Counted from the first letter of the stretch, positions 420-15,490 are shown. The stretch: 15,490 nucleotides of DNA from an uncultured Thermoplasmata archaeon (GCA_963768855.1 CAVYJM010000005.1:1-15490); one strand, 5' to 3'. Notes: generated from the sequence alone by a model not told the origin. Program-made: numbers and translations.

Positions 420-635
420 GCGGTCCTCGACGACCAAGAGCACGTGGGCGGCCCGGTGTCGCGACCGACCCGCCTCCGTCCGAGCGCGCGGACGCGCGGG
501 AGAGCGCTAAGAATCCACCGCACTTACCGTATGCGGCGGGAGAGCGACGCTCCCCCTGCGGGAGCTCGTGGCGAGGCGTGGGCTCCGTCCCTTTGGGGCG
601 TTACTCGTCCGAGCCGTTCCGATGGTTGCTTCGCT

Positions 636-1073
636 TCACGGTGCGACGGCAGGGGGCGAGACCGCGCGGGAGCCCAGGGTGGATTCCAGGGTGGCGAACG
701 CCTCTCGGAGGTTCTTCTCCATGCCCGTCCCGCGTGCGTGGATCACCGTGTTCTCGCCCACCGGATAGTACCACAGGTGGAGCCGGTTCGGCTCCCCCAG
801 TTTCGCCGCGCCCGTCTTGGCGCCCGAGCGACCGAATTCGAGCAGGCCGCCCTCGGACCGGTGCGCCATGGAGCCGTACGTCATCCCGATCTTGACCTTC
901 TGGTGCAACGCGACGCCCGAGTAGGGCGCGCCCTCGAGGGAGGCGTCCTCCTCCTCGACCGAGAACCCGCTCTGGCTCATCGATGCGTTCACCGCGCTCC
1001 GAAGTTCGTTCACGTTTCCCTGGACACGCCATTCCTTCTCTTGGACCAGCGGTTTCATCAGACCCATGGGCAT
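636..1073 (-). CDS. Hypothetical small soluble protein (~145 aa)
   Basis: Track ORF 636..1088, start trimmed to ATG 1073 because GGAGGTG (1086..1080) lies 6 nt upstream. Globular-looking alpha/beta composition, unlike the Arg/Pro-rich overlapping frames. No family recognised. Confidence 0.75.
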   Translation of the reverse strand: MPMGLMKPLVQEKEWRVQGNVNELRSAVNASMSQSGFSVEEEDASLEGAPYSGVALHQKVKIGMTYGSMAHRSEGGLLEFGRSGAKTGAAKLGEPNRLHLWYYPVGENTVIHARGTGMEKNLREAFATLESTLGSRAVSPPAVAP

Positions 1074-1079
1074 CCCGCC

Positions 1080-1086
1080 CACCTCC
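1080..1086 (-). promoter_or_regulatory. Shine-Dalgarno site GGAGGTG
   Basis: Minus strand reads GGAGGTG-GGCGGG-ATG(1073). Confidence 0.65.
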
Positions 1087-1278
1087 ACTCGCGATCGCGG
1101 CCGGAACCTCCCGCGATGTCGTCCTGAATCCTTCTACCTTCTCCACGCGCGCAAGCGACGAGGACGACCTTCGTCCCCCCTCCGCGAAATGCGTCGGGCG
1201 AGCGAAGGCGACCCGTCGACTCGGAGGGCGGCGCGGGCACCATTGCCGGAGGAATCTCAGTCTCGACGCACTCCCCGT

Positions 1279-1938
1279 TCACGGACTCATCGGAACGAGG
1301 ATCCCCGCTCCCCGCGGCCGGAGCAGCCCCCAGCCGGCACGGATGAAGTGGACGCCCGTGTAGCCCATGACGATGTGCATCGTCAGGGTCAGGATCACGG
1401 CACCGACCTGGACCAGGCTCCCGCCTCCGAACGGGTCGCCGCAGTTGCTGCCCGTGCAGCCCCCTTGATTGTTCCCGCCGTTGTTGCCCCCGCCGACAGG
1501 TCCCGCGTTCCCGCTCGCGTTCGAGGGGATCTGGATCGTGGTCTCGGCGCGGTTCGTGAGCTGGTCCGCATCCCGGACGGTCAGGGAGATCGTGTACGTC
1601 CCAGCCTGCACGTACGTGTAGGGCGAGATCGACTGGCCATACCCGACGCCGCGTCCGTCCCCGGCGTTCCAGGTCCAATTCACGATCACCGCGCCGCCGG
1701 ACTGGGAGAGGTCCTTCACAGACAGCGTGGAACCACTCGTCTGCCAGCTGAACGCGGCGGTGGGCCCGCTCGCCTGCGACCCGACCGGAACCGCCTGGCT
1801 GCCCTGCGGGCGGAGGAAGCTGTTCGGGTTCGTCGCGATTGAGATGAAGCTGTAGACCGTGAACACGACGAGCGCGATGCCGAGGACCAGCACGACGATC
1901 CCGAGGATGAGGGAGAGGGTGTCCCGGTCGCGTTTCAT
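1279..1938 (-). CDS. PKD-domain membrane protein with N- and C-terminal hydrophobic anchors (219 aa)
   Basis: N-terminal TM LILGIVVLVLGIALVVFTVYSFI. PKD signature PTAAFSW...WTWNAGDG...YTYVQAGTYTISLTVRD. Gly/Asn-rich linker, then C-terminal TM LVQVGAVILTLTMHIVMGYTG. An AT-rich box lies upstream. Confidence 0.85.
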   Translation of the reverse strand: MKRDRDTLSLILGIVVLVLGIALVVFTVYSFISIATNPNSFLRPQGSQAVPVGSQASGPTAAFSWQTSGSTLSVKDLSQSGGAVIVNWTWNAGDGRGVGYGQSISPYTYVQAGTYTISLTVRDADQLTNRAETTIQIPSNASGNAGPVGGGNNGGNNQGGCTGSNCGDPFGGGSLVQVGAVILTLTMHIVMGYTGVHFIRAGWGLLRPRGAGILVPMSP

Positions 1939-1970
1939 GATCCCGTCGCCGTCCCCGTTCGCCTGAGACC

Positions 1971-1978
1971 TATATTAA
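1971..1978 (-). promoter_or_regulatory. Archaeal-type TATA box TTAATATA for the PKD gene
   Basis: An isolated AT-only octamer in GC-rich DNA, 32 nt upstream of ATG 1938. Confidence 0.65.
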
Positions 1979-2077
1979 CCCGGGAGGGCGGATTCGCAGG
2001 GTGATAACAGGAACCCGCGGGGGCGTACGGCCTTGGGCGTCCTGGAACGCGATCCCCGCGATAAGAGCGCAGATTCC

Positions 2078-2084
2078 TTCAAGT
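2078..2084 (+). promoter_or_regulatory. Putative weak TATA-like box TTCAAGT for 2119..2556
   Basis: Lies about 35 nt upstream of ATG 2119. The same TTCAAG core occurs on the minus strand upstream of 10857. Non-consensus. Confidence 0.3.
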
Positions 2085-2118
2085 CCCCCCTGGGCCCTTC
2101 CCCCGGGGAGGGAATCGC

Positions 2119-2556
2119 ATGGAACCCCCAGCCCCCTCGTGGGACCCCGTCCACCAGTCCAGAGAGCTGAACGCCTGGCAGCGGCACCAGGAGGCGAGCC
2201 TCACCCTCTCCGGGGCGGCCCTCGCCCTCGTCAACGCGCTCCTGGCCTTCGAGGTCCTGAGCGTGAACGAGGACACGAACACGTTCCTCGTCCTCGGCGC
2301 GCTGAACCTCGCGATGATCCTGAGCTGGGTGATCATCGCGCGCCGCGCGGCCGCGCGCACGGCGCGCTGGGCGATGAAGGCGCGGCGGATCGAGCGGGAG
2401 ATTCTGCGCGTCCCGGACCGGCTCTCCCTGTGGAACGAGGCGCCGGAGGGCGGCCTCCCCGCGTGGATCGCGGTCGGCGGGGTACTCGTCGGCTTCGCGG
2501 TCCTGTGGGTCGGGCTCATGGGATACGCGTTCTGGGTCACGTACCTGCACGGGTAG
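2119..2556 (+). CDS. Small membrane protein with 3 predicted TM helices (145 aa), function unknown
   Basis: Hydrophobic segments ASLTLSGAALALVNALLAFEVL, TFLVLGALNLAMILSWVIIA and WIAVGGVLVGFAVLWVGLMGYAFW, with a basic amphipathic helix between TM2 and TM3. Strongly G/C-ending codons; GGGGAGGGA upstream. Confidence 0.8.
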   Translation: MEPPAPSWDPVHQSRELNAWQRHQEASLTLSGAALALVNALLAFEVLSVNEDTNTFLVLGALNLAMILSWVIIARRAAARTARWAMKARRIEREILRVPDRLSLWNEAPEGGLPAWIAVGGVLVGFAVLWVGLMGYAFWVTYLHG

Positions 2557-2614
2557 CGGCCTCCCCGGGACCGCCCTCGAGGCCGGCTCTGACGGGCGTC
2601 TCGTTCGCTGGACA

Positions 2615-2653
2615 GGGGCACAATGGGCCCAGCATTTCCTTAGGCCCTGCCCC
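2615..2653. other. Stem-loop (11 bp with a 4-nt bulge) between convergent genes; possible terminator or RNA element
   Basis: GGGGCA(2615-20) pairs with TGCCCC(2648-53); bulge CAAT; GGGCC(2625-29) pairs with GGCCC(2643-47); 13-nt loop. No U-tract. Confidence 0.35.
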
Positions 2654-2861
2654 GATGCCTTGCTGACCTGGCCGTTCGACCCTCAGGTGACCGGACGGAT
2701 CGCAGCGATTGTGCTCGCCGGGATCGTGGTCATCCTGCGGCGGGCGGCTGTGCATGTGTTCCCAGGTCGGTCACCTCGCCCGGCGGCCTTCCCGAGATTC
2801 TCAGCGGACACTCACCTGGAAGGGAATGCATGGAGGATGCAAGGCTCGCGGGCGAGGCGGT

Positions 2862-4112
2862 TTAGGGACGTTCGGCGGAGCGGGCCGCGAGGACCTTCTC
2901 GATGAAGTCGAGCTGGGTGGGGATGTACCCAGCCACGAGGGTCCGGGCCTTCATGCCCGCTGCCTCGCGAACACGCGTCCGCAACACCGGGTCGGCGAGG
3001 AGCTTCCGGATGGCCTCCGCCAGGCCCTCGGGCTCACCTGCCTTCACGAACAAGATGTCGATGCCGTCAACGAACTGGTCCGGCAGGGAGCCGACCGGTG
3101 TCGCGATCACCGGGACCCCTGCAAGCATCGCCTCGTACACGACGGTCGGACTCCCCTCCGTGTACGAGGGGAGGAGCAGGAGGTCCGTCGACGCGAGGAG
3201 CGCGGGGACGTCGTCATGCGGGACGGGTCCGCGGATCGAGACCCGGGGCGCGAGGGAGCGCCGCGCGATTTCCGCCCGGAGCTCAGACTCCTGGCTTCCG
3301 CCTCCCACGTACTCGAGTCCGATCCGGGGCGAGCCGGAGCGCGGGAGCCGCTCCATCGCGTCGAGTATGTCGAAGATTCCCTTCTCGCGCTCGAGGCGGC
3401 CAAGGTAGCGGACCATCCAGGATGCCCGATCTCGCTGGCCGGACTCGCCGACCGCGCGGGGTGGGAACCGTCCGGCGTCCACGAAGGAGGTCGATGTCTC
3501 GATGAGCTTGGCCCCGCCCTCTCGGGCCGAGGAGGCAAGAGCGCGGTTCACCGCCAGGACGCCGTCCGCGGCTCGGAACACCCGCCCCTCAAGCCACCGC
3601 ACGGCATGGCGCGTTGCTCCGGCCGCGGTCGACCCCCGTAGCTTCTGACCAACGGTCTCCTCGATGGACCCGGCGAGGAACACGAAGACCGGGATCCCTG
3701 TGAGCTTGCCAGCGACGACGGTCGGGAGGCCGGTGACGACCGTGTCGTCCGCGCGGAGGATGTCGACGCGATCGCGGCGGAGGGCCCGCAGGAGCGCCAG
3801 GTACAAGGCCGCCATTTCGAAGCCCATGCGAAGCGGACGGTCCAGACGGTTCACTCCTCGCGGGAGAGGGATGCGGTGCAGGCGCAGCTCCTTCGAGGCG
3901 ACCGAGGCCTCATGGAGGGCGACCCCGTGCGGCGCGAAGACGAATACGTCGACGCTCCTGAGGTTCTCGATCAGCCGTCGTGCCTCATCGAGGACGACGC
4001 CTGGGAACGAACCAGACGGCGAGATCGAGCTCGTGCCGGCGATGCCCAGCGCGCGCCCGCGGGCCCGCGACTCCAGCCGGTTTCGCTCGGAAGGATCGGG
4101 TGGGGACGCCGT
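2862..4112 (-). CDS. GT4 (GT-B fold) glycosyltransferase, ~416 aa; start codon non-canonical or uncertain
   Basis: The C-terminal domain has YLGRLEREKG and LPSYTEGSPTVVYEAMLAG (EX7E). The track starts it at GTG 3854, but the frame is open to 4235 and encodes a GT4-like first strand and helix upstream (RALGIAGTSSISPSGSFPGVVLDEARRLIENLRSVDVFVFAPHG) with no ATG/GTG/TTG. The start is placed provisionally at an in-frame ACG (4112), 4 nt after GGGGGTGA. Confidence 0.85.
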   Translation of the reverse strand, partial: TASPPDPSERNRLESRARGRALGIAGTSSISPSGSFPGVVLDEARRLIENLRSVDVFVFAPHGVALHEASVASKELRLHRIPLPRGVNRLDRPLRMGFEMAALYLALLRALRRDRVDILRADDTVVTGLPTVVAGKLTGIPVFVFLAGSIEETVGQKLRGSTAAGATRHAVRWLEGRVFRAADGVLAVNRALASSAREGGAKLIETSTSFVDAGRFPPRAVGESGQRDRASWMVRYLGRLEREKGIFDILDAMERLPRSGSPRIGLEYVGGGSQESELRAEIARRSLAPRVSIRGPVPHDDVPALLASTDLLLLPSYTEGSPTVVYEAMLAGVPVIATPVGSLPDQFVDGIDILFVKAGEPEGLAEAIRKLLADPVLRTRVREAAGMKARTLVAGYIPTQLDFIEKVLAARSAERP

Positions 4113-4116
4113 GGTC

Positions 4117-5352
4117 TCACCCCCCGGCGTTGCGCGGCGCGGCCCGGACGGTCTCGTATGCGCCCGCGGCGACCTTCGCGATCCGGGACCAGGAGTACTC
4201 CCGCGCGAGGAAGGCGAGCCCGTTCGACGCTCTTCTCATCCGGAGCGTCTCGTCCGTGAGCAGGCTACGAAGCGTGGCCGCAATCTCCTTCGGATCGTCG
4301 CGGACGCAGCGCCCCATGTCCTCCCGAGCCAGGTCCTCGGCCCACGAGCCCGATCCGGTCGCGACGACCGGCAAGCCCGCCGCAAGATAGTCGTACATCT
4401 TCCCGGGGACGGCGTAGGTGCGTGAGGCGGAGTCCGCCCAGGGTACGATCCCGACGTGGCAGGTGGCCAGGAACCGGAAATACTCCGTGTCGGTGGGGAA
4501 CCAGAAGAATTCGAGACGTACCCCCCGCTCGTGGGCGAGGCGCCGCAGCCGGCGGCGTCCGGGTCCGCGGCCCGTTGCGAGCAGCACGGTCTCAATGCCG
4601 CTCCCCCGGAGGAGGGCGCAGGCGTCGAGGAACGGTTCGAGCCGCACCCATGAGGTGACGATGCCCGAGTACACGAGCCGGAAGGGAGGCGGCGGCGACG
4701 AAGGGCCGGAGACCCGGGCCGTCGCCCCGGTCGGGACGACCCAGGTCCGCGTGTGGTCGGCGCCGAGTTGCTCGACAAAGTAGTCGCGCATCTCCCGGTC
4801 CGGTACGAGGATGCCGTCGGCGTCCGCCGCGATCCGCGCGTCGAGGTCGCGGGCTTGGTGCTCCACCGCCGATCCGGCAGAGGCCAGCCCGTCCTCCACG
4901 AGCTCGGCGGCCCAGACGTTGTGCAGGTCCGCCACGACCGGCATCCCGAGCTCCTGCTTCACGGAGCACGCTGCCGCGGCGGCCACCTGCTGCTCGGCTT
5001 GGAGGAGGTCGAGGTGCAACCCGCCCGCGCGGGCAACGACCTTGCGTGCCAGCCCCTGGATCTCGGCTTGGAGCCGCGCCGGATTCCGAAGGGCGAGGCG
5101 GCGCACCGACTTCCACCGGTAGAACGCATCGACCGCGATGCGCCGCGCGGTGCTCGAGACCCGCTGTCCGGGGGAGGTCGCGAGGGATGCGAACTCCCCC
5201 GAATCCCACCACGCGGGTCGGCCCGGGTAGGGGGAAAGGAGGACGGAGTCCACGGAGTTCGTTCGCAGGCCCCGCGCGAGGCCCACCACCCGCTTCGTCG
5301 TCCCCAGGCTCTGACCCGGCGGATGCGTTGTGAGAATCCCGATCCGGGTCAT
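4117..5352 (-). CDS. GT4 glycosyltransferase, WbuB-like subtype (411 aa)
   Basis: N-terminal MTRIGILTTHPPGQSLGTTKRVVGLARGL and VVADLHN. The C-terminal AVPGKMYDYLAAGLPVV is the P-x-K-x-x-E/D-Y variant replacing canonical EX7E. SD GGCGGTGA lies 6 nt before the ATG. Confidence 0.9.
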   Translation of the reverse strand: MTRIGILTTHPPGQSLGTTKRVVGLARGLRTNSVDSVLLSPYPGRPAWWDSGEFASLATSPGQRVSSTARRIAVDAFYRWKSVRRLALRNPARLQAEIQGLARKVVARAGGLHLDLLQAEQQVAAAAACSVKQELGMPVVADLHNVWAAELVEDGLASAGSAVEHQARDLDARIAADADGILVPDREMRDYFVEQLGADHTRTWVVPTGATARVSGPSSPPPPFRLVYSGIVTSWVRLEPFLDACALLRGSGIETVLLATGRGPGRRRLRRLAHERGVRLEFFWFPTDTEYFRFLATCHVGIVPWADSASRTYAVPGKMYDYLAAGLPVVATGSGSWAEDLAREDMGRCVRDDPKEIAATLRSLLTDETLRMRRASNGLAFLAREYSWSRIAKVAAGAYETVRAAPRNAGG

Positions 5353-5403
5353 GACTTGTCACCGCCGTCCCCGGCGAGCCGCGGCGCCAGCATTCCCCAT
5401 TGG

Positions 5404-5409
5404 TTTAAG
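5404..5409 (-). promoter_or_regulatory. TATA-like box CTTAAA for the GT4 pair 5352->2862
   Basis: Isolated AT patch about 50 nt upstream of ATG 5352, in the short gap after the methyltransferase stop. Confidence 0.5.
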
Positions 5410-5428
5410 CGTATCGCTCGACGGCGCC

Positions 5429-6283
5429 TCATGGGTTCGAGGCGGCATCCCGGAGGCGGGCGATGACCATCACGTTCTGGCTCGCATCCGGCACGCGGAT
5501 GAATCGTTCGTCGAGGCGTGCCTGGATCCTCGCGCACCACGACGCAAGCCAGCCGATGCCCCGCCAGCGCGCGACGACCTCGAGCTCGGAGAGATAGGGC
5601 AGTGAGAAGCCCACGCCATGGACCGTCTCCACCTCGAACCCGTGCGATCGCAAGGTCTCAACCAGGTACGTCGTCGTGTAGAGCCGGTGCGGGACGTTCC
5701 CGTGATAGAGCCGGTAGTCGTAGTATCGCAGGCCCCGGGCCTTGGCGACTCCGATCGCGAGGTAGAACGGCAGGAGCGGTATCTCCGACCATCGCGCGGC
5801 TCGCTGGGCCGCCTTCACCACGCGCCGGGCATGGCGGGGCTCGCGTTTCGCCCACCTCTGGACCCGCTCCGAACCGAGCGCGAGGATGAACGGGGGATAG
5901 CGGAGTGCGGGGACCGTGATGATGTAGCGCCGCGCGGCGAGACGTTCCAGTTCGGAGAGCGCCTTCGCTTCGTCCGGGACGTGCTCCACGACCTCCGTCG
6001 CGACGACCGTGTCGATCGCGTGCGCTCGCAACGGGAGATGTTCCGCGTCCGCTTGCAGGAGGCCCACGGACTCGGATGGCACGGTCGCGCGATCGATCCG
6101 CCGGAGTTTCGTGCGGTTCAGGTCGCAGCCGACGATCCGCTCGAACCGGGCGGAGGAACCGGCCATCTCGCGTTCGAGGTTCCCCTCCCCGCATCCGAGA
6201 TCGAGGAGGCTCCGCGCCCCGAGTTGGTCCAACGCCCTCAGGATAGCGGCATACCGTCTCCGGTGCGTCTCCTCGAGGAGCAT
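5429..6283 (-). CDS. Class I SAM-dependent methyltransferase (Methyltransf_11-like, ~284 aa)
   Basis: Motif I LLDLGCGEG, VGCDLN, LQADAEHLPL, DTVVATEVVEHVPD and IITVP. The track ORF (to 6877) overlaps the divergent GT4 gene, so the start is set at ATG 6283, about 40 nt downstream of AATTAAG. ATG 6376 is an alternative. Confidence 0.88.
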   Translation of the reverse strand: MLLEETHRRRYAAILRALDQLGARSLLDLGCGEGNLEREMAGSSARFERIVGCDLNRTKLRRIDRATVPSESVGLLQADAEHLPLRAHAIDTVVATEVVEHVPDEAKALSELERLAARRYIITVPALRYPPFILALGSERVQRWAKREPRHARRVVKAAQRAARWSEIPLLPFYLAIGVAKARGLRYYDYRLYHGNVPHRLYTTTYLVETLRSHGFEVETVHGVGFSLPYLSELEVVARWRGIGWLASWCARIQARLDERFIRVPDASQNVMVIARLRDAASNP

Positions 6284-6320
6284 CGTCGCGTGCGTCGGCT
6301 CGCAGTCGTCCACGTAGGAG

Positions 6321-6329
6321 CGCTTAATT
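6321..6329 (-). promoter_or_regulatory. TATA-like box AATTAAGCG for the methyltransferase
   Basis: The only AT patch in the divergent gap, about 40 nt upstream of ATG 6283. The TTAATT core could also be read on the plus strand. Confidence 0.45.
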
Positions 6330-6448
6330 CGGTCCGCTTCGGCGGATCGCGGGGGAGGAAGCAGCAAGGAGTGCATCCGAGAGCCGCGTTCCCGGAATGA
6401 ACATTGCGGCACCGCCAACGGTCCCCGGCTCCCATGGAGGCCGGGGGC

Positions 6449-6460
6449 GAAACCTCTATG
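6449..6460 (+). promoter_or_regulatory. Putative BRE/TATA-like element GAAACCTCTATG
   Basis: Ends 27 nt before ATG 6488, similar spacing to CTTTATG before ATG 11366. This would give a leaderless transcript. Confidence 0.35.
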
Positions 6461-6487
6461 CCGGGCATGGGGGTTCCGTGCGCGTTC

Positions 6488-7675
6488 ATGCCCGAGGATG
6501 CAACCGACCTGCTGGCCTTCGTGTCCAGCTTCTCCCACTTCGCCGGGCCGAACAACCCCGTCCTCGACCTGGGGAACCATCTGGTCTCGGCGATGGGGGT
6601 CCGGTTCGCCGTCGTCACGACGCGCAACCCGGTGGACCCGGAGTTCGCGCGGCGCGTGAGGTTCCCCGTGTACCGCGACCTCTCCGGTACCTCGAGCTCC
6701 ATGGGTGGACGCCTGCTCCGCGGTCCCACGAACGTCCATCGTGCGAGGGCTTCCCTGGCTCAACACCGGCCCAGGCGGACAATCGTCTTCTCGAGCCTGG
6801 ACACCGCGTTCGAGGTGTCGCGAGCGGCGCGAGGTCCCGTCCTCCTGGGGTACAACGTCCTCGGCAACATCCCCCACGGGTCGTGGGGGCGGCGATTCGG
6901 TCTACGGTATTGGCGTCCGGCGAGCTGGCGCAACCCGGTGTACGAGGGTCTCGACCGCCTCGCTGCACGAACCGTCGTCTCGGGCATCCTCGCGCACAGC
7001 CGCTACCAGGAGAGCCTGTACCGAGCGATGGGGATCCCTGCCGAACGGATCCGCGTCGTGCCCCACACCATCGACTTCGCGCGGCTGGATGCGGAGGCGG
7101 CCACTGCTCCCCCGGGTCCGTCGTCCTCCGACGAAGGCCGGCCGACCGTCCTCTTCATCGGACGGCTCGAGCCCGACAAGGGCGTCGTTGAGTTGCTGCG
7201 AGCCGCCGAGCTCGCCTCGAGGGAGGTGCCGCTCACGTTGCAGATCATCGGCACGGGCCGGCTCGCCCGCGCGGTCGCCGAGGCCCGGGCGCGTGCGCCC
7301 TCCACGCTCCGGGTCGAGACGTCGCACGACGTTCCCGTGACGGAGCTCCTGGGGCGGATTCGAGCTGCCGCCGTCGTCGTGATGCCCTCCTGGGTCGAGT
7401 TGTTCGGGATGGTCGCCCTCGAGGCGATGGGGCTCGGGAGGCCCTTGATGGCTTCCCGCCACGGTGGGGTCTCCGAGATCATCCGGGACGGCGTGGACGG
7501 GTTGCTCATCGAGCCGTTCGACACGGACGGGTTCGCGGCGTCCCTGCGTAGGGTGCTTGGAGACCCCGCGCTGCGCGAGCGACTCGGAAACCGAGCTCGA
7601 GAGCGGGTCGCGGCGGAGTACGAAGTCCATGTCGTGGCCCCCCGGTTCCTTCGGGCCTTGGAGGAATTGGCGTGA
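6488..7675 (+). CDS. GT4 glycosyltransferase (~395 aa)
   Basis: VLFIGRLEPDKG, MPSWVELFGMVALEAMGLG (EX7E) and HGGVSEIIRDGVDGLL. Start trimmed from 6404 to ATG 6488 (MPEDATDLLAFVSSF...), which directly precedes the first beta-strand. The stop overlaps the next GTG (GTGA). Confidence 0.9.
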   Translation: MPEDATDLLAFVSSFSHFAGPNNPVLDLGNHLVSAMGVRFAVVTTRNPVDPEFARRVRFPVYRDLSGTSSSMGGRLLRGPTNVHRARASLAQHRPRRTIVFSSLDTAFEVSRAARGPVLLGYNVLGNIPHGSWGRRFGLRYWRPASWRNPVYEGLDRLAARTVVSGILAHSRYQESLYRAMGIPAERIRVVPHTIDFARLDAEAATAPPGPSSSDEGRPTVLFIGRLEPDKGVVELLRAAELASREVPLTLQIIGTGRLARAVAEARARAPSTLRVETSHDVPVTELLGRIRAAAVVVMPSWVELFGMVALEAMGLGRPLMASRHGGVSEIIRDGVDGLLIEPFDTDGFAASLRRVLGDPALRERLGNRARERVAAEYEVHVVAPRFLRALEELA

Positions 7676-9690
7676 AGCCCCTGCGGCCGGAGGCGGTGAC
7701 CGCCGCGCTGAGTCTGGCGGTGTGCCTCGCCTTCCTCGGCTCGCTGGCCACCCCAGGCTTCGGAATTGTCCGCGCCCTCGCAGGGGCGCTGATCCTCACG
7801 TACCTCTCGGGTCTCTCGATCCGAGCGTTCCTCCGAGTCGCCTTCCCGCCGAAGGTATCTCGCCCCCTGTGGACTCCCGCGGGGATCGCCTTGGACTTCA
7901 TCACGAGCTTCGCGCTCCTGGTCATCCTGTCCATGGCGCTCGCCCTCACTTTCCTCTTCTGGGCGTCCACGCTGACCGGCCTGGTCGTCGCTCCCTGTAT
8001 GGCGCTCGATGTCGGGACGATCGTGTGCTCGAGGCTCCGTCCTGCGGCGACCTCGACGCACCGGCCTTCTCGCGGAATACCCGTTGCGGTCGCGGCCCTC
8101 GTCGGCGCCTCGGGAATCCTTTTCGTCCTGTTCCGGTGGCCCAACCCGTACCCGTCGATCAGCGGGTGGGACCTGAACCCGGCTCTGGCCTCGGTCGGCT
8201 GGACCCTCAATCATCACGGGTTTGGCTTCGTCCTCTGGCCTCCGTTCCCCGCTTCGGCGCTCGTCCCGTACCCCGCCTCCTTCAACGACTTCATCGCGGG
8301 CTACAGCCTCGTCCTCGGAGTCGACCCTCTCTCCATCTTCTACTACGGCGTCCTCGTACTGCTCCTAGCCTACAGTCTCGGCTTCTTCGCGATCGCGTAC
8401 CGCCTTTCGAGCCGCGTGGATTCCGCGCTTCTCGCGACCTTGGCGATCCTGTATATAGGGACCGCCCTCCCGGAGACGGTCCGGACCCCGCTCTTCGTCA
8501 CGATCGACATGCTCGGCCAGCTCGTCTTCCTCGGCCTCTTCCTCTTCTTCCTTGACGATGAGGGGAGCCTGGGCCGGCGCCGCGCGATCCTCCTGCTCGG
8601 CTCCGTGTTCCTCGTGTACTGGTACTTCTACGAGCTCGTCGTAGTGACCCCGTTCCTCGCGTTCATGCTGGGCGGCTCGTTGCGGTCGGCCCACGCCCAG
8701 CGTCCGGTCCGTTGGTTCCGGGGGACCCTGGTGATCGTCCTCCTCGGGGTCGTCGGCGTCTCACTCGCCGCGACGGTGTTCGTGCCGTCCCTGGAAGCAA
8801 ACCTGTCCGCGGGCTTCCAGTTCGTGCCCAAGGTCTTCGCCCTCGTGGTGATGTACTCACCCGTCGCGCTCGTCCTTGGGTTCCTCGTCGTGTTCAATCG
8901 AGCGCACGTCCCGGAGGACCCCCCGGTGAGGGGATTCCGCGCACGGTACCTCCTCGAGTACGTTTGCGTGTACCTGATCATCTACCTGCTACCCCTCTCG
9001 GCGACCTACCGAGTCGAGTTCTACCTCCGGGCCGCCTTGGCGTTCTACCTCGCCTCGCTCCGCTTTCCCACGACGCGGGAAATGCGCGAAGCGTTCCGCG
9101 CGGTCCGCGCTCTGCTCGCGCGGCGGCGGGCCCCCCGTCCGTGGCACCCTCTTGCGCTCCAGCGTCTCGCGGCGCTCGCGGTACTCGCACTCGTGGTGTT
9201 CATGGCGGTCCTCCTGCCGTTCCAGGTCACTCAGCCGGAGCCCCACATGTCCGTGGACGAGTACCACGCCTCGGTCTGGATTCGGGACCACACCCCGGCG
9301 GACGCGTACATCGTGACGGATCCCGGGACCGGGTACGTCATCCGCGGTTTGTCGCTGCGCAATGCGTCGCTCTCCTTCCTGCTTCCGGATGGACGCGCCC
9401 CCGATGATTCGTCTCCCCTGTATTCTTACTTGCGGACGTCTCTGCACTCCATTTTCGATTCCTACTTCACCGCGCAGGCCCAGGCCCAGATCCTCGTCCT
9501 CGACTTCCCGCACGTCTACGTTGTGATCAGCACGCGGACGGTCCTCTGGGCGAGCACTCCGGCCGTATCCATCTTCGACCATCCGATCCCGGACCTGTCC
9601 CCCGCGAGCCTCCTGCCGGTCTTCGCGCCCCCCGCGTTCCAGCCCCTCTTCGTGTCGCCGACGGTGGTCGTCCTGAGCGTCAGCACGTGA
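7672..9690 (+). CDS. Polytopic membrane protein (672 aa), GT-C fold / STT3-AglB-like architecture
   Basis: About 15 hydrophobic segments. The first large loop has SGWD (8161-8172) followed by YPASFNDFIAGYSLVLGVDP. The soluble C-terminal domain begins DEYHASVWIRDHTPADAYIVTDPGTGYVI, which aligns with the AglB 'AL.WLR.NTP.DA.V.SWWDYG.WI' region but lacks WWDYG. SD GGAGG at 7660-7664; GTGA coupling to the upstream GT4. Confidence 0.8.
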   Translation: MKPLRPEAVTAALSLAVCLAFLGSLATPGFGIVRALAGALILTYLSGLSIRAFLRVAFPPKVSRPLWTPAGIALDFITSFALLVILSMALALTFLFWASTLTGLVVAPCMALDVGTIVCSRLRPAATSTHRPSRGIPVAVAALVGASGILFVLFRWPNPYPSISGWDLNPALASVGWTLNHHGFGFVLWPPFPASALVPYPASFNDFIAGYSLVLGVDPLSIFYYGVLVLLLAYSLGFFAIAYRLSSRVDSALLATLAILYIGTALPETVRTPLFVTIDMLGQLVFLGLFLFFLDDEGSLGRRRAILLLGSVFLVYWYFYELVVVTPFLAFMLGGSLRSAHAQRPVRWFRGTLVIVLLGVVGVSLAATVFVPSLEANLSAGFQFVPKVFALVVMYSPVALVLGFLVVFNRAHVPEDPPVRGFRARYLLEYVCVYLIIYLLPLSATYRVEFYLRAALAFYLASLRFPTTREMREAFRAVRALLARRRAPRPWHPLALQRLAALAVLALVVFMAVLLPFQVTQPEPHMSVDEYHASVWIRDHTPADAYIVTDPGTGYVIRGLSLRNASLSFLLPDGRAPDDSSPLYSYLRTSLHSIFDSYFTAQAQAQILVLDFPHVYVVISTRTVLWASTPAVSIFDHPIPDLSPASLLPVFAPPAFQPLFVSPTVVVLSVST

Positions 9691-9726
9691 CGGACCCGAA
9701 CCGCATCGCGCGGGCCCGAGGCCGGT

Positions 9727-10857
9727 TCACACGAGGTTCTCGTACAGGTTCTCGGTCAGCTGCCCGATGCGCGCCCAGCTGTACGAATCCTCGATGAGGC
9801 GGCGTCCCGCGGCACCCATCCGGCGCCTCATCCCTTCGTCCCTGAGGAGGGCGACGACCCTCTCGGCGAACGCGGCGAAGTCGTGGGCGGGGCGCAGGAA
9901 TCCGGTCTTGCCCTCGATGACGACCTCGGACGTCCCCCCCGTGTCCGCGGCGACCACCGGGACGCCGCAGGCCAGGGCCTCGAGGCACACGGTCGGCAGT
10001 CCCTCGATGAACGACGGGAGGACGAGGACGGAGGTCGATCGGAGAATGTCCGCCACGCGGCTGTGTTCGACCTCGCCGATGAACCGCACGTTGCCGTTGA
10101 GGTCCGCCGCGGCGGCCCGCATTCCACCCAGCATCGAGCCCGTCCCGACGACCTGAAAGATCGCTTCGGGAACCTCGCGCCGCACGAGGCGCGCGATGTC
10201 GAGGAAGGAGCCTGCGCCCTTCCACTGCTCGAGCCGGCCCACGTACGTGACGACGGGTGGGTCCGGCGCGTCTCCGTCGCGGGGCCGGAATTCCTCCGGA
10301 TCCACCGCGTTCGGAATCAGGTGGAGCTTGTCCTCTTCCACGTCGAAGACCTCGCGGCACTGCCGCAGGTCGAACTCGGAGACCGCCGCGATCGCGTCCG
10401 CGCTCTCGATCGTCCAGCGGCCGAGGGTGCGGTCGTAGAGCTTCTCCTTGAGGTAGAGCGCCGACGAGGTCTTGCGGTCCATCTCGGCGTATCGCGAGTA
10501 GGTCGCGCCGTGGATGTGGAGGACGAACGGTCTGCCCGTGATGCGGGATACGAGGGCGGCCTGGTTCGAAGTCGTGTAGACGTACGAATGCGCGTGCAGA
10601 ACGTCCGCGTCGCTCTTGGCCAGCTCACGCGTCAGGAACGTGAGCGGGTTGACGCCGAACATCAGGCCGTAGCAGCGGGTGGTGTGGATCGGAATGTGGT
10701 CGCCCATGAACTTGCGGTGGCCGTTCGGCGGGAAGTTCGGAGCGTAGAAATCGACGTCGTGGCCCCGCTTCTCGAGTTCGACCGCGAGGTTCGAGGAGTA
10801 GACCACCGAGCCGCCCGGCCGCTCGGGAAGGAACGGGGCGATTTGGGCGATTTTCAT
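9727..10857 (-). CDS. GT4 glycosyltransferase (376 aa)
   Basis: MKIAQIAPFLPERPGGSVVYSSNLAVELEKRGHDV, DVLHAHS, IPNAVD, YVGRLEQWKG and LPSFIEGLPTVCLEALACGVPVV (EX7E). Confidence 0.95.
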   Translation of the reverse strand: MKIAQIAPFLPERPGGSVVYSSNLAVELEKRGHDVDFYAPNFPPNGHRKFMGDHIPIHTTRCYGLMFGVNPLTFLTRELAKSDADVLHAHSYVYTTSNQAALVSRITGRPFVLHIHGATYSRYAEMDRKTSSALYLKEKLYDRTLGRWTIESADAIAAVSEFDLRQCREVFDVEEDKLHLIPNAVDPEEFRPRDGDAPDPPVVTYVGRLEQWKGAGSFLDIARLVRREVPEAIFQVVGTGSMLGGMRAAAADLNGNVRFIGEVEHSRVADILRSTSVLVLPSFIEGLPTVCLEALACGVPVVAADTGGTSEVVIEGKTGFLRPAHDFAAFAERVVALLRDEGMRRRMGAAGRRLIEDSYSWARIGQLTENLYENLV

Positions 10858-10924
10858 GGTGTGCCTTCTGGGGCCGATGGGGGCCTCGGACGGAGTTCAC
10901 GTGGGACTAGCGTGCGCCGAAGCG

Positions 10925-10937
10925 AACCTTGAAGGTT
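10925..10937. promoter_or_regulatory. Perfect inverted repeat AACCTT-G-AAGGTT, putative operator overlapping a TTCAAG box
   Basis: 6-bp arms with a 1-nt spacer, about 70 nt upstream of ATG 10857 on the minus strand. Confidence 0.4.
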
Positions 10938-11330
10938 GCAGGTCTGAACCCCAGTGTGCGGCACGACGGTAGCACCCCTCACTGTATTATGCATTCAAGT
11001 ACCCCCTAATAAGCCCTCGGATGTGGTATTGGGACCTCCGATTACGCGGGGTTATCTAAGAGTTTCTTGAACAATTATCGAACCAAGCGGATTTTTCTTG
11101 GCGATATCCGGTTTCGAGCCACTCGGAAGAAGACGACACCGGGTCGGAGGTCCCGGCCCGTGTCGACGAGGTCGGGCGAACCACCTGACCGCGATCGCGG
11201 AGTTCCGCTTCGAGGCGGCCTTTCGGGACGCTTCCGATCCGCACGGCCTTACGCTGATCTCGATCCCCGCGGGCACCTTAGGAACGATGTATCGCTGGCG
11301 CGCCGTGTAACGGCGGAATCGCGCCGCGAG

Positions 11331-11337
11331 CTTTATG
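11331..11337 (+). promoter_or_regulatory. TATA-like box CTTTATG for the ABC operon
   Basis: Ends 28 nt before ATG 11366; GGAGG also lies at 11353-11357. Confidence 0.5.
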
Positions 11338-11365
11338 GCGGGACCGCCCTTTGGAGGCCGCGCCC

Positions 11366-12304
11366 ATGATCGAGGTCCGGGGACTCACGAAGGTCTATAC
11401 CCGCGGGCGCGGGCAGGGCGCCAAGGCCTTGGACGGCGCGACCTTCACGGTCCCCGACAAGAGCATCTTCGGGTTCCTCGGGCCGAACGGCGCGGGGAAG
11501 ACGACGACGATCCGGATCCTGGCCACGATCCTCGAGCCGACCGAGGGCACCGCGACGGTCGAGGGCCACGACGTGCGCACGGATCCGCTCGCGGTCAAGG
11601 GCGCGATCGGCTACATGCCCGAATACCCCGGCTACTATCCCACGATGACCGCGGAGGAGCACCTCGATTACTGGGGCCGGTTCTACCACATGCCGAAGGC
11701 GGAACGGGCGAAGCGAGGCAAGGAGCTCCTCGACCTCGTCGGCCTGGGCCAGGAGCGCGCGAAGAAGGTGAAGGCCTACAGCCACGGGATGCTCAAACGC
11801 CTCGGCCTGGCGCAGGCGCTCCTTCATGACCCGCGCGTCCTGATCCTGGACGAACCCGCGGGCGGGCTCGACCCGTACGGGATCATCTTCTTCCGCAAGC
11901 TGATGAAGGACCTGAATCGCGAGGGGAAGACGATCCTCCTCGCCTCCCACATCCTCTCCGAGGTCGCCCAGACCTGCACCCACGTCGGCGTGATCGACAA
12001 GGGGAAGATCGTCGCGGTCGACACGACCGAGGCGCTCCTGTCCCGCATCGGCGGCGGAGGCGTGCGCTGCCTGATCGAGGCGCCGAGCGTCCCGGACGCG
12101 GCCCTGCGCGGCCTCCTCGACATCAGCCACGTGAAGGATGTGGTTCGCACGGACTGGGGCCTCATCGTCACGATGGACAAGGACGCCCGGGCCGCGGTCA
12201 ATGCGTTCCTCGTCGGCCTCGGCGTGCCCGTGGTGGGCGTGAAGCTCGCGGAGGTCACGCTCGAAGACGCCTTCCTCTCGCTCACGGGAGGCGGGCCGAC
12301 GTGA
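11366..12304 (+). CDS. ABC-2-type exporter ATP-binding subunit (~312 aa)
   Basis: Walker A GPNGAGKT, signature YSHGM, Walker B ILDE, H-loop ASH, and a C-terminal extension ending LEDAFLSLT typical of ABC-2/DrrA-like NBDs. Start trimmed from TTG 11351 to ATG 11366 (MIEVRGLTK). Confidence 0.95.
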   Translation: MIEVRGLTKVYTRGRGQGAKALDGATFTVPDKSIFGFLGPNGAGKTTTIRILATILEPTEGTATVEGHDVRTDPLAVKGAIGYMPEYPGYYPTMTAEEHLDYWGRFYHMPKAERAKRGKELLDLVGLGQERAKKVKAYSHGMLKRLGLAQALLHDPRVLILDEPAGGLDPYGIIFFRKLMKDLNREGKTILLASHILSEVAQTCTHVGVIDKGKIVAVDTTEALLSRIGGGGVRCLIEAPSVPDAALRGLLDISHVKDVVRTDWGLIVTMDKDARAAVNAFLVGLGVPVVGVKLAEVTLEDAFLSLTGGGPT

Positions 12305-13734
12305 GCTTCGACCCGCGGGACGTGTTCCGCGGATCGCTCATCGTCGCGGGGCGCGACCTGCGCTCGAACGCGCGCGGGCTCAAGGTCTGGATCATCTCGG
12401 GGCTCACCCTCCTGGCGATCCTCGGAGCGGCGTTCGGGATCGGCGGGCTCACGTCACAGGGACCGTCCATCGCCACCCAGTACATCCTCTGGGGGTCGGC
12501 CTACTGGACCGCGAACAACTCCACGACAGGCATCGTGGTCTGGGTCAGCGACTACCTCGGGTCACCCCGGGCCGGGCAGACCGTCGTGTTGGGGGAGCCG
12601 TTCTCGCTGGGGCAGTTCAATTCGACCTTCGTCGAACGCGCCATGATCGCGACGAACGCAACGGGATGGGCCCAGTTTTCGAACCTGACCGCGGGAAAAG
12701 TCTGGCCCGTGCGGATCACCGCGGGCGTCCTGACCTTCACCGACGGCTTCGTGATCCCGTCCCAGCGACCCACACAGAACCTGTCCGTGACGGTCAAACG
12801 GTTCGATCTCCTCGGGGACGGAGCCGCGCGGGACGTGAGCATCCACGCCATGTGGGCAAACGGGACACCCGCAGAGGGTGCGCAGGTGGCGGTCAACGGG
12901 ACCGCCGTCGGCACAACGGACCGCAATGGATTCCTCTACCACCGACTCGACGACGGGACGTGGGGACTCACGGTCGCCCTCCGCGGGGAGACCTTCCCTG
13001 ATACCGAGGTGGTCCAGCGGTCCCCGCTCGCGATCCTCCCGTTCTTCCAGGGGCCGGACGCGCTCTTGCTGTTCTTGGGGGTCGCGCTGATGGGCCTGTT
13101 CGCGCCGATCATCGCGATCGCCATGTCCTACGACGCGGTCGCAAAGGAGCGGATGCAGGGCAGCCTTGAGCTCCTCCTCGCGCGCCCCGCCTCCCGAGCG
13201 GGAATCGCGATCGGGAAGTTCATCGGGTCGTTCCTCTCCGTCGGACTCCCGATGCTCGGCGTCCTGCTCGGAGCCGTGGTCGGCGTCGCGGGGGTTTCGG
13301 GGAGGTGGCCCGACGTGGTCTTCGTCGCCGCCTTCGTCGTCGGGACCCTGGGCCTGATCGCGGTCTACGTGCTCATCATGCAGATCTTCTCGACCCTCGC
13401 AAAGTCCGCGGGCACGGCGATCCTCTCAGCCCTCGTCGTCTGGATCGTGTTCAACATCGTGTGGAACCTCGTGTTCCTCGCGGTGGAGTCGGCCTTCCGG
13501 ATCGAGGGCGGGACGCCTGCGGCCTTCACGCTCAGCACGATCACGACCCTGTTCAACCCGAACGGCGTGTACCAGCTCATGGTCACCACGTTCGTGCCCG
13601 CGTCCGCGCTGGGGCTCTTCGGCACGACGGGAGGTGGGAGCCTGCCGGACTGGGCCGGACCGGTCGCCATGGTCGTCTGGATTGCCGTCCTGCTCGTCCT
13701 CGCCGTCCTCGTGTTCCGCAAGCGGATCGTCTGA
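12301..13734 (+). CDS. ABC-2-type permease (NosY/ABC2_membrane_2-like) with a ~190-aa extracellular beta-rich insertion (477 aa)
   Basis: TM1, a large loop, then SYDAVAKERMQGSLELLLARPASRAGIAIGKFIG (the classic ABC-2 permease motif) and 5 further TMs. GTGA overlap with the ATPase stop. Confidence 0.9.
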   Translation: MSFDPRDVFRGSLIVAGRDLRSNARGLKVWIISGLTLLAILGAAFGIGGLTSQGPSIATQYILWGSAYWTANNSTTGIVVWVSDYLGSPRAGQTVVLGEPFSLGQFNSTFVERAMIATNATGWAQFSNLTAGKVWPVRITAGVLTFTDGFVIPSQRPTQNLSVTVKRFDLLGDGAARDVSIHAMWANGTPAEGAQVAVNGTAVGTTDRNGFLYHRLDDGTWGLTVALRGETFPDTEVVQRSPLAILPFFQGPDALLLFLGVALMGLFAPIIAIAMSYDAVAKERMQGSLELLLARPASRAGIAIGKFIGSFLSVGLPMLGVLLGAVVGVAGVSGRWPDVVFVAAFVVGTLGLIAVYVLIMQIFSTLAKSAGTAILSALVVWIVFNIVWNLVFLAVESAFRIEGGTPAAFTLSTITTLFNPNGVYQLMVTTFVPASALGLFGTTGGGSLPDWAGPVAMVVWIAVLLVLAVLVFRKRIV

Positions 13735-13790
13735 GCGACCGCCCGGACCGATGTCGGCCGTCCGACTTCGAGATTCGGGCCTGAATTGGG

Positions 13791-13810
13791 ATTACTATCT
13801 TAATAGTATT
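13791..13810. promoter_or_regulatory. AT-rich inverted repeat TACTAT-CTTA-ATAGTA, putative operator/TATA region for the GT2 gene
   Basis: Perfect 6-bp arms (13793-98 and 13803-08) inside a 20-nt nearly AT-only island. Confidence 0.45.
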
Positions 13811-13853
13811 CTGCCGATTATGGACCTATCGCTTCGTGAAGCGTACAATGACC

Positions 13854-13860
13854 CTTAAGA
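13854..13860 (+). promoter_or_regulatory. Second TATA-like box CTTAAGA upstream of the GT2 gene
   Basis: Lies about 47 nt before ATG 13907 but only about 20 nt before GTG 13880. Confidence 0.35.
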
Positions 13861-13879
13861 AGCACGGAGGCGCAAGTCG

Positions 13880-15490
13880 GTGTACCAGGAGACCCCGCGA
13901 TTGACGATGGAAGGCCGTTCTGTCGCGCAGCGCCGCTTTGCCAACCGCTTCTTCGTGCTGGTGCTCGCTATATGGATCGGCGCCGTTGCCATCTTCGCCG
14001 GCACGACGGTGAACTTCCGCTCCTGGATCAGCGTCCTCCAGTTCGGGCTGATGGTGTTCTTCCTGTTCAGCTTCGCAATCGTGTTCTCGAAGCGCGTCGT
14101 CTCCCTGTTCGTGAAGCCGTACCCGCTCCCCAAGCTCGACTCCCTCGCGAGGCAGCCGCGCGTCGCCCTCCTCTACACGACCATGAACGACGTTGTCCCG
14201 GACTGCGTGGAGGCGATTCGCCAGACGTACCCGGTGGACGTCTACATGCTGGATGACTCCTCGGACCCGTACAAGCGGGCCACCGTCGACGACCTGGCGC
14301 GCAAGCACGCGTTCCGGATCCTCCGCCGCCCCGAGCGCAAGGGGTTCAAGGCGGGCGCAATCAACGGCTGGCTCCGGCAGTTCGGCGTGCAATACGACTA
14401 CTTCGTCCTCCTGGACGCGGACTCGATCCTCCCGCCCGACTGGGTCGCGGAGGCATTGAAGTACGCGGAGCATCCGGAGAACCGGGACCTCGCGATCTTC
14501 CAGGGCCTCATCAACATCTGGAACACGGACCGCCCGTTCCCCCGCGCGCTCGCTGCGACGACCCTCCTCGGCCAGGACGAGTGGGAGCGTCGGGTCAGCG
14601 GTTACGTGGGCGCGGTGTTCTGCTACGGGCACAACGTCATGCTGCGCACGAAGCCGGTCCTAGAGATCGGTGGGTTCGTCGAGGACTACGTGTCCGAGGA
14701 CTTCGCGACGGCCGTGAAGCTCGCGTCGGCGGGCCACGGCTCCGTGTTCGTGCCCCTCCACACCTGGGAGGCCATGCCCGAGAACGTCCGCGGGTTCGTG
14801 AAGCGGCAGACGAAGTGGACGCGCGGGTCGATGGAGTTCTGGTCGTTCGTGCCCCCGGCCCGGCTGCCGTGGCGGAAGAAGGTCTTCCTCTACACGACCC
14901 CGATGAATCACGTGGCCTACATCACGATCATGTTCGCGATGGTCGCGGCCGTATTCGGCCGCGTCTCGACGCCCGGGGCGTTCTTCGCGTTCGGCCAGAA
15001 CCTCCTCGTCGCGCCGATCGCGTACATCTGGTCGATCAACCTCTTCCGCTTCATCATCGTCATGTCCCTCATCACGTCCGTCTTCACGGTCGCGAAGCTC
15101 GTCCAGGTGCGGCTGGGCTTCTGGCGGTACTACCGCGCCCGGACCCTGAGCAAGGCGATTGGGGCGATCATGCTCCCCCACGAGCTCCGGGCGATGCTCA
15201 TGTACCTCGTCGACCCGCGGAGGAAGTTCCCCGTGACGCCCAAGGACGAGCCGCCGATGACGATGCGGGAGATCCTCCACGTCGGCCGCGGGACCGTCGC
15301 GCTCGTCGCGGTCATGGCGGTCGGCCTCACGATGTGGAACCCCGTCGGGCTGTGGTACAACGCCCTCTGGTTCCTGTCGTTCATCACCGCCCCCTTCGTC
15401 CTCTACTACTACTGCGGCCCGCTGACCCGGCCCGCGACCGCGGCGGGCGAGGGCTCGCGCGATCTGCTTGCGGACCCGAGGATCCGGACG
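13880..15490 (+). CDS. Processive membrane GT2 glycosyltransferase, cellulose synthase (BcsA)/OpgH-like, 3'-truncated by the window edge
   Basis: Manually translated; absent from the track, open for 537 codons to the window end. Two N-terminal TMs, then LLYTTMND, VYMLDDS, RKGFKAGAIN, LDADS (14411-14425), YGHN, SED (14693-14701), KRQTKWTRG (14801-14827), further TMs and FPVTPK (15227-15244). Start is GTG 13880 (SD GGAGG 13866-70) or ATG 13907. Confidence 0.92.
   Translation, partial: MYQETPRLTMEGRSVAQRRFANRFFVLVLAIWIGAVAIFAGTTVNFRSWISVLQFGLMVFFLFSFAIVFSKRVVSLFVKPYPLPKLDSLARQPRVALLYTTMNDVVPDCVEAIRQTYPVDVYMLDDSSDPYKRATVDDLARKHAFRILRRPERKGFKAGAINGWLRQFGVQYDYFVLLDADSILPPDWVAEALKYAEHPENRDLAIFQGLINIWNTDRPFPRALAATTLLGQDEWERRVSGYVGAVFCYGHNVMLRTKPVLEIGGFVEDYVSEDFATAVKLASAGHGSVFVPLHTWEAMPENVRGFVKRQTKWTRGSMEFWSFVPPARLPWRKKVFLYTTPMNHVAYITIMFAMVAAVFGRVSTPGAFFAFGQNLLVAPIAYIWSINLFRFIIVMSLITSVFTVAKLVQVRLGFWRYYRARTLSKAIGAIMLPHELRAMLMYLVDPRRKFPVTPKDEPPMTMREILHVGRGTVALVAVMAVGLTMWNPVGLWYNALWFLSFITAPFVLYYYCGPLTRPATAAGEGSRDLLADPRIRT

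Follow-up and report, generated by a model that had tools for sequence, protein, structure and literature searches.

Do adjacent glycosylation genes in an uncultured archaeon form one pathway, or do they only lie side by side? The question is raised by a stretch of 15,490 nucleotides (nt) from an uncultured Thermoplasmata archaeon (GCA_963768855.1, CAVYJM010000005.1:1-15490), analyzed here in full and hereafter called the window, which makes up the entire contig C5 of a mixed-strain Thermoplasmata bin. An initial annotation, made from the sequence alone, had read the nine consecutive genes between positions 2862 and 15490 (table 1) as a two-arm envelope system: four GT4 glycosyltransferases (GTs), a methyltransferase and an AglB-like GT-C would make and hand off a methylated lipid-linked glycan, next to an ATP-binding cassette (ABC) exporter and a GT2 synthase making a polymer. 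The nine genes are real; counting eight of them as glycan-related is correct only if the ABC pair is included. Our findings support another model, in which the nine-gene "system" is an accident of neighborhood. Six genes, at 2547-11321, are one allele of a replacement-type variable glycosylation locus of a wetland/soil Thermoplasmata lineage, and this strain-swapped cassette is the main feature that the earlier reading missed; the ABC pair and the GT2 are conserved-flank genes, unrelated neighbors of the cassette. We consider this architecture, a cassette with an unrelated flank, very probable. As an explanation of the whole we favor, at a probability of about 0.6, a replacement cassette whose products would assemble an oligosaccharide on dolichol-phosphate (Dol-P), to be transferred by the GT-C to a surface glycoconjugate.

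The cassette is delimited by comparison within the bin itself, C5 being an alternative haplotype of contig C15. To the left, window 1-2546 matches C15:16130-18678 at 95.1% nucleotide identity and the metagenome contig L099 at 95%; to the right, window 11322-15490 matches C15 and C3, the contig that continues C15 at 99% identity, at 92.8-93.4%. Between these flanks, the cassette and the occupant of the same slot at C15:4332-16129 have no nucleotide similarity detectable by blastn. This layout is not an assembly artefact, since independent metagenome contigs span both junctions: L097, L098 and L099 cover the left part and left junction of C5, and L007 the right junction. A misassembly of C5 was thus ruled out, both junctions recurring in other samples. 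The bin (2.87 Mb, completeness 93.6%, contamination 7.7%) contains small contigs that duplicate larger ones at 88-98% (C1, C13, C14, C16, C19, C20, C22, C23, C24) and therefore mixes two or more strains; further alternative haplotypes among these duplicates may mark variable loci. Related sequences were found in wetland metagenomes, and guanine-cytosine (GC) content, habitat and accession type suggest the order RBG-16-68-12 (Ca. Angelarchaeales, PMC9038741) as the host lineage.

Each allele of the slot has a different GT-C. The 11.8-kb C15 cassette (L046:4332-16129) holds an epimerase, a GT2, a GT4, a DUF2079 protein, a GT2-GtrA fusion, a 417-amino acid (aa) membrane protein with no Pfam match, a 346-aa protein and a C-methyltransferase, at 61.7% GC, falling to 54%, compared with 68.1% in the window allele. 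Between the same two boundary genes, genome G013 carries a subtilase, an epimerase, a GT2, an 818-aa DUF6541-like GT-C, a GT4 and an orthologue of GT4d (79%), and in G009 the slot is filled by a C15-type cassette. In the metagenome contig L107, a 31%-identical GT-C and a GT4c orthologue adjoin an ABC ATPase 81% identical to that of the window. That contig (protein P0016, NCBI MFA5870069.1) is labelled Bathyarchaeia at source, yet has 63% GC; this value and the ATPase identity suggest a misbinned Thermoplasmata contig. Identity of the flank genes to the window is 96.7-97.4% in C15, 86-88% in G009 and 84-85% in G013, whereas C15 and G009 have 2972 nt of cassette in common at 90%. Thus, judged by pairwise identities of four haplotypes, cassette content does not follow flank relatedness. 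No integrase, tRNA, att site or boundary repeat was seen at the cassette, and the repeats at its ends look like chance. Alleles were presumably exchanged by homologous recombination in the flanks, though an old polymorphism might account for them instead. The GT-C cassette is missing from most genomes of the family, and no relative was found in viral contigs. Replacement flexible genomic islands for surface polysaccharides are known as O-antigen-type loci and from Salinibacter, Alteromonas, SAR11 and Haloquadratum. Like them, the present locus combines conserved flanks with non-homologous glycosylation contents and has no integrase; unlike them, it is small, at 9-12 kb. We found no paper describing such a replacement island in this Thermoplasmata lineage.

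What of the three remaining genes? Unrelated cassettes have the ABC pair and the GT2 as neighbors too, and because these belong to the conserved flank the two-arm interpretation, in which all nine genes co-function with the ABC-2 pair exporting the glycan and the GT2 making a polymer, is left unsupported. It could draw on the adjacency of the ABC pair and the GT2 in G009, G013, G023 and G036, and on the glycosylation cassettes that border the ABC ATPase in several relatives. However, in G005 the GT2 is not with the pair, and in G018 the pair's neighbors are non-glycan genes; its proteins, moreover, do not look like a glycan exporter. The permease is of the PF12679 type, not the PF01061 type of Wzm, its best solved relative being NosY (7o0y, E 2.8e-9). 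The ATPase lacks PF14524, the C-terminal domain of Wzt, which in the bin appears only at C15:51861; a true Wzm/Wzt pair, with a 431-aa ATPase and a 284-aa permease, lies at C15:51699-53845. This carbohydrate-binding domain is frequent in Wzt, though not universal. The surrounding region of C15 (48-54 kb) contains a DUF1616-like gene and GT4s besides Wzm/Wzt.

The polymer arm fares no better. The GT2, 546 aa long in its full-length C3 copy, ends after the membrane helices, of which about 5 are predicted, and resembles BcsA (E 7e-9) and OpgH in its catalytic D, KAG, DxD, SED (for TED) and gating FxVTxK motifs. Unlike BcsA, it reads RQTKW in place of QxxRW, a trait of its family (RQ[NT]KW in at least 111 of 120 homologues, P0100-P0219), and it has no PilZ domain; neither a BcsB-like gene nor any other conserved neighbor accompanies it in the genomes examined. 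It has at least 243 close homologues and was found in 19 of 200 genomes of the class. Its surroundings were examined in five further members of the genus and in eight genomes from other families, and there it stands alone among unrelated genes, without glycosylation neighbors. The initial annotation had named co-conservation in relatives as its own test, and the outcome was mixed: GT4c, the GT-C, GT4d and a methyltransferase are co-conserved, but the ABC pair and the GT2 are not, remaining with the flank. The two-arm system fails on that comparison, and we regard it as highly improbable. As separate observations, the PilZ-less BcsA/OpgH-like GT2 family is widespread in archaea and is present in 10/10 genomes of one other Thermoplasmata family; the C15 copy (G000:C15:320-1777) is broken near residue 486 at the contig end, probably by assembly error, the overlapping C3 copy being intact; and the gene after the GT2 (L063:338-2137, C3:4337-6136), also found in G009 and G036, specifies a protein of 599 aa with a vWA domain and an N-terminus similar to class III (pilin-type) signal peptides.

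Within the cassette, the 672-aa membrane protein finds no Pfam or NCBIfam match above cut-off, and a profile search of Protein Data Bank sequences found none. Its AlphaFold model (pLDDT 90.7, pTM 0.91) is nonetheless telling: all 26 Foldseek matches at E<=0.001 are GT-Cs, PglB among them at E 1e-6. In VIA comparisons, yeast STT3 gave Z 16.3 with a root-mean-square deviation (rmsd) of 6.0 over 437 aligned residues, and DPY19, Pmt4, PglB, AglB and AftB gave similar values, while unrelated rows stayed under Z 5. The C-terminal domain (model 529-672) fits the core of PglB (3aag_A: Z 11.7, rmsd 2.6, 123 aligned) and 3vu0_A (Z 10.4, rmsd 2.9, 121 aligned); a single-sequence model of this domain reached pLDDT 37.9 and was not used. 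Because the model matches structures of oligosaccharyltransferases (OSTs), DPY19, Aft and ArnT, the protein is, on its predicted fold, a WWDYG-less GT-C. It falls outside GT66, and PF02516 (STT3) matches neither it nor any of 52 family members. It is highly likely to be a lipid-donor GT-C other than an N-linked OST. The description "WWDYG-less AglB-like GT-C" can therefore be kept in its first part, while "AglB-like" applies at the level of fold alone.

The predicted chain comprises a DUF1616-like four-helix N-terminal module (~1-125), a membrane core and an STT3-core-like C-terminal domain (~525-672). Its best whole-chain matches are models of DUF6077, DUF6541 and DUF2206 proteins (TM 0.66-0.70 over residues 1-672, both sides being predicted; feature score 0.98), with which it has the entire fold in common, N-terminal helical module included. 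It differs from them in having its own motif set and in falling below every Pfam gathering cut-off; a single family member reaches DUF2206, at E 4e-4. In the literature we found no paper mentioning DUF2206, DUF6541, DUF6077 or DUF2079, and no tested function for the first three. The family, represented by 61 sequences at 50% clustering, has Bathyarchaeia as its named members, and across 301 class genomes a strong match occurs only in this bin.

Residue conservation gives the family a profile of its own. D167, just before helix 168-181, is present in 44/44 rows, and hhalign sets it opposite D58 of AglB, in the first external loop (EL1), weakly, at a probability under 5%; against the local AglBs only the EL1 region aligned, the C-terminal, second-loop (EL2) and R447 windows remaining unaligned. 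GT-Cs employ an EL1-type carboxylate as general base (PMC10154233). R447 and E449 occur in 51/52 rows, and R453, D529, E530, D550 and R622 are nearly invariant. In the true OSTs WWDYG forms the Ser/Thr pocket of the sequon and TIXE activates the Asn (PMC8342417). Here the position of WWDYG, at a strand-helix junction, reads DPxTG (550-554), with D550 in 48/49, and no conserved acidic column resembling the TIXE/SVSE acid exists from 268 to 449. As to the second DXD metal site, in EL2, D279 is invariant in 13 close rows and present in 18/47 across the family, and E/D268 reaches 64%. Compared with AglB, STT3 and PglB (GT66), the protein thus retains a GT-C membrane core, an EL1 Asp, a conserved Arg after a late helix and a C-terminal core domain, but departs from them in the absence of PF02516, WWDYG and TIXE, in its extra DUF1616-like module, in an identity of 10-14% and in its accessory distribution.

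The fold bears on two alternatives to transfer onto a surface glycoconjugate. One holds that the GT-C is a second, sequon-independent OST placing the cassette glycan on Ser/Thr of proteins (O-glycosylation). The top structural matches are indeed protein-modifying GT-Cs (STT3, PglB, DPY19, Pmt4), and the C-terminal domain carries an invariant surface of its own (D529, E530, W536, D550, R558, N564, S566, R622); yet the glycan-modifying AftA/B/D, ALG9 and ArnT match at similar scores, the closest whole-chain models are the DUF6541/DUF6077/DUF2206 proteins, and no gene for a target protein is co-conserved, so that we find O-glycosylation unlikely. In the other, the GT-C would act as WpsI or Wzy do, polymerizing the lipid-linked repeat unit to yield a surface polysaccharide or a lipoglycan. 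That every cassette type has its own GT-C, as repeat-specific polymerases do, and that the genome encodes Wzx-type flippases would suit such a role. Against it, the structures matched in fold are GT-Cs of the OST type, which have a luminal dome, and a chain-length regulator was seen in no locus; a polymerase is accordingly an improbable identity for this protein. No Wzy, WaaL or RodA entry appeared among the fold hits, an absence neutral between the readings.

The GT-C does not travel alone. A GT4c orthologue, in a clade with 100% SH-aLRT support, adjoins it in 14 loci from two archaeal lineages, lying upstream and usually overlapping, downstream in two loci, and one small gene apart in one; the GT-C and GT4c trees divide into the same high-GC and low-GC groups. 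The more distant L095 (24% identity) has a non-orthologous GT4 upstream, and L106 and L109 are too short or altered to score. In L043 (8865-10000) the GT4c orthologue is split into open reading frames (ORFs) of 240 and 128 aa, the preceding GT4 being split too, either by assembly error or by decay. Most complete loci add a GT4d-like gene and some methyltransferase; the high-GC loci keep the order and orientation of methyltransferase, GT4c, GT-C and GT4d seen in the window, and orthologues of the methyltransferase, ~50% identical, hold the same position in L003 and L100-L103. In L003 and L100-L102 the module sits beside dTDP-rhamnose genes, without the ABC pair or the GT2, and both are missing from most GT-C loci of sufficient length. 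The low-GC loci form operons of co-oriented genes: first an orthologous DPM1-like GT2, then two to four GT4s; three of these loci (L041, L096, L104) contain FkbM genes. The high-GC loci examined lack the DPM1-like GT2. This species group has added GT4a and GT4b to the module; GT4b is sister to a GT4 of L096 with 99% support, GT4 relationships being taken from a quick tree.

Several functions that the cassette would need are encoded elsewhere. The canonical AglB (2172 aa, with WWDYG and TIAE), expected outside the window by the initial annotation, was located at C11:179476-186027 (L010:7474-13992) and is the sole PF02516 scorer of the bin. AglB is found in 57/61 genomes of the order, and a low-GC genome with the GT-C has its own; its tail is long, with CarboxypepD_reg-like repeats, frames of ~2170-2190 aa being typical in the order. 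No GT4 or GT2 was seen closer than 30 kb to aglB. As had been noted, the cassette lacks a flippase; a Wzx-type gene lies at C6:636765 and a weak candidate at C3:11817. Candidates for a DPM1-like GT2 are found at C6:676945 and C15:25433. To the left of the slot, L048:5433-16554 (C15:25.4-36.6 kb) holds a GT2, several GT4s, a B12-dependent radical S-adenosylmethionine (SAM) enzyme and a 544-aa membrane protein without Pfam match.

Combining family knowledge with gene order, we propose that the four cytoplasmic GT4s and the methyltransferase would build a short methylated oligosaccharide on Dol-P, the carrier being primed by a DPM1-like GT2 whose gene belongs to the operon in low-GC relatives and lies at another place in this genome. 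The glycan carrier would be moved across by a Wzx-type flippase from outside the cassette, and outside the membrane the GT-C would transfer from the lipid donor to an existing surface glycoconjugate, not to Asn sequons, with D167 as putative catalytic acid/base and R447 near the leaving phosphate, roles suggested by analogy. The outcome would be a strain-specific surface type. Transfer en bloc onto a glycan or lipoglycan acceptor, as by lactococcal WpsJ, is tentatively and slightly preferred over capping of the AglS kind, because the fixed partner of the GT-C is a GT4 and because the cassette can be dispensed with, whereas AglB belongs to the core and is not linked to it.

Capping would run differently: the GT4s and the methyltransferase would extend a lipid-linked N-glycan, AglB would transfer it, and the GT-C would add one sugar from Dol-P-hexose to the protein-bound glycan, so that the cassette varies the N-glycan. 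Such an arrangement is known in Haloferax volcanii (PMC5867893, PMC4973528); the DPM1-like GT2 inside low-GC operons, the core status of AglB in the order and the GT2-GtrA fusion that accompanies GT-Cs in the C15 allele all agree with it, and acceptor specificity would explain the GT4c/GT-C coupling equally well. On the other side stand the constant GT4 partner, the high-GC loci without a DPM1-like GT2, the absence of the cassette from most family genomes although AglB is nearly universal, and the lack of GT4 or GT2 genes near aglB. Capping is in our view a close rival, somewhat less likely than transfer en bloc.

Assembly on Dol-P and transfer by the GT-C to a surface glycoconjugate must be set against several observations. 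A flippase is absent from the cassette, and a priming GT2 from this allele of it. Since C5 derives from a co-binned strain, the AglB, flippases and DPM-like GT2s are established for the bin and not for that strain in particular. The 14 loci represent two lineages and are not independent cases, and residues were equated from range offsets and from a profile alignment that is weak (hhalign probability under 5%). The C15 allele, with its GT2-GtrA fusion and DUF2079 protein, looks like a three-component single-sugar system. Finally, the Haloferax cluster (GTs, AglP and AglS; the AglD gene lies at another site) offers a different explanation of such a gene set, namely that an N-glycan is capped with a single sugar (PMC5867893).

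Known systems offer partial parallels to the assembly and transfer proposed here. The lactococcal Wps pathway consists of WpsA/B, WpsC-F, WpsG and the GT-C WpsJ (PMC9574508). In wps and other multicomponent transmembrane glycosylation systems (CsdAB-CflA), as would apply here, a priming GT-A acts on a monophosphate lipid, cytoplasmic GTs elongate and gene content varies among strains; wps likewise employs a GT-C without sequence conservation acting outside the membrane. The present locus differs in being archaeal, in its presumed dolichol carrier, in its GT4 elongators and methyltransferase and in the absence of a flippase from the cassette, and the likeness drawn is one of gene content. The agl cluster of Haloferax volcanii similarly unites archaeal GTs, a methyltransferase and a non-AglB lipid-donor transferase, and the alternative cluster beside pilA2 is an example of clusters that vary among strains beside a conserved anchor gene and that have been compared to serotypes (PMC5867893, PMC4973528). 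Unlike in Haloferax, however, aglB is unlinked here, the GTs are GT4s, FkbM is not matched by the methyltransferase, and between two conserved flanks entire cassettes without homology take each other's place.

The individual genes of the window are collected in table 1. They form five to six transcription units by orientation and spacing, in line with the at least five counted originally. AglP is of the FkbM type. The window methyltransferase matches PF08241, PF13649 and PF13489 but not PF05050 (FkbM), and is for that reason an analogue of AglP at most. Four GT4s in six genes exceed chance (24 GT4 in 2579 called genes; 0.0003 such windows expected); since the genome has two further such clusters, on C6 and C15, GT4 clustering is ordinary biology. 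First-start ORF calls were too long or too short for several genes (methyltransferase, GT4c, GT4a). In GT4a no in-frame ATG, GTG or TTG precedes the conserved N-terminal strand, and homologues have ~85 further residues ahead of the first GTG. The GT4b stop overlaps a GGTGA motif (window 4110-4123, - strand) that is invariant in four haplotypes, and four bases past this motif stands GTG in L099 and ACG in the window, L097 and L098; the sequence thus suggests ACG at 4112, behind a GGTGA ribosome-binding motif, as the probable start codon. A +1 frameshift fusing GT4b with GT4a was rejected; it is simpler to assume a ribosome-binding motif followed by an aligned start codon, ACG or GTG. The 490-bp gap between GT4d and the ABC ATPase (window 10858-11350) has a lower GC (61%) and is partly kept in L007 and G013; Rfam gave no match, this gap included. 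A sigma-70 promoter scan of the window matched shuffles equally, a model that does not fit archaea.

Table 1. Features of the 15,490-nt window, with positions counted from its first nucleotide.
Feature	Position	Strand	Remarks
Left conserved flank	1..2546		glyoxalase-like fragment, 150-aa protein, PKD membrane protein, 145-aa membrane protein; outside cassette
145-aa membrane protein, left boundary gene of slot	2119..2556	+	identity to sister haplotype stops in last codons
Exchangeable glycosylation cassette, 8.8 kb, six genes	2547..11321		no blastn similarity to C15:4332-16129
GT4a	2862..4112	-	PF00534 E 8e-34
GT4b, 411 aa	4117..5352	-	PF13692, PF13579
Class I SAM methyltransferase, ~294 aa	5429..6313	-	PF08241 E 4e-16
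GT4c, 395 aa	6488..7675	+	PF00534 E 4e-29; overlaps GT-C start by 4 nt
Unclassified GT-C (predicted), 672 aa	7672..9690	+	fold model, family residues
GT4d, 376 aa	9727..10857	-	GT4; second conserved partner of GT-C
Right conserved flank	11322..15490		outside cassette; identity to C15, C3
ABC ATPase, DrrA/GldA-like	11366..12304	+	without Wzt C-terminal domain
ABC-2 permease, NosY-like, extracellular Ig-like insert	12301..13734	+	PF12679 E 4.5e-35
BcsA/OpgH-like membrane GT2 without PilZ	13880->15490	+	lacks ~9 last codons at contig end

Overall, variable glycosylation clusters and accessory GT-Cs are already known in Haloferax and bacteria, and in concept nothing here is new. The novelty lies in an archaeal GT-C family that is not yet classified and keeps a constant GT4 partner, and in the direct evidence that cassettes have been replaced within this uncultured lineage. 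Little has been mapped of archaeal surface glycosylation beyond AglB, and the locus provides a compact, bounded test case. The GT4c/GT-C module is common to Thermoplasmata-like and Bathyarchaeia-like genomes, and its GT-C family, which escapes Pfam and NCBIfam, has candidate catalytic residues. The cassette probably gives some strains their own cell-surface sugar pattern, and its alleles replace one another in serotype-like fashion among co-occurring strains of an uncultured wetland lineage. More speculatively, the GT-C family could be a second archaeal OST that needs neither AglB nor N-sequons and moves a whole Dol-P glycan to tetraether lipids or to the hydroxyls of proteins; if true, strains would be exchanging, as a serotype-like cassette, a route of en bloc O-glycosylation or lipoglycan formation to which no archaeal enzyme has so far been assigned.

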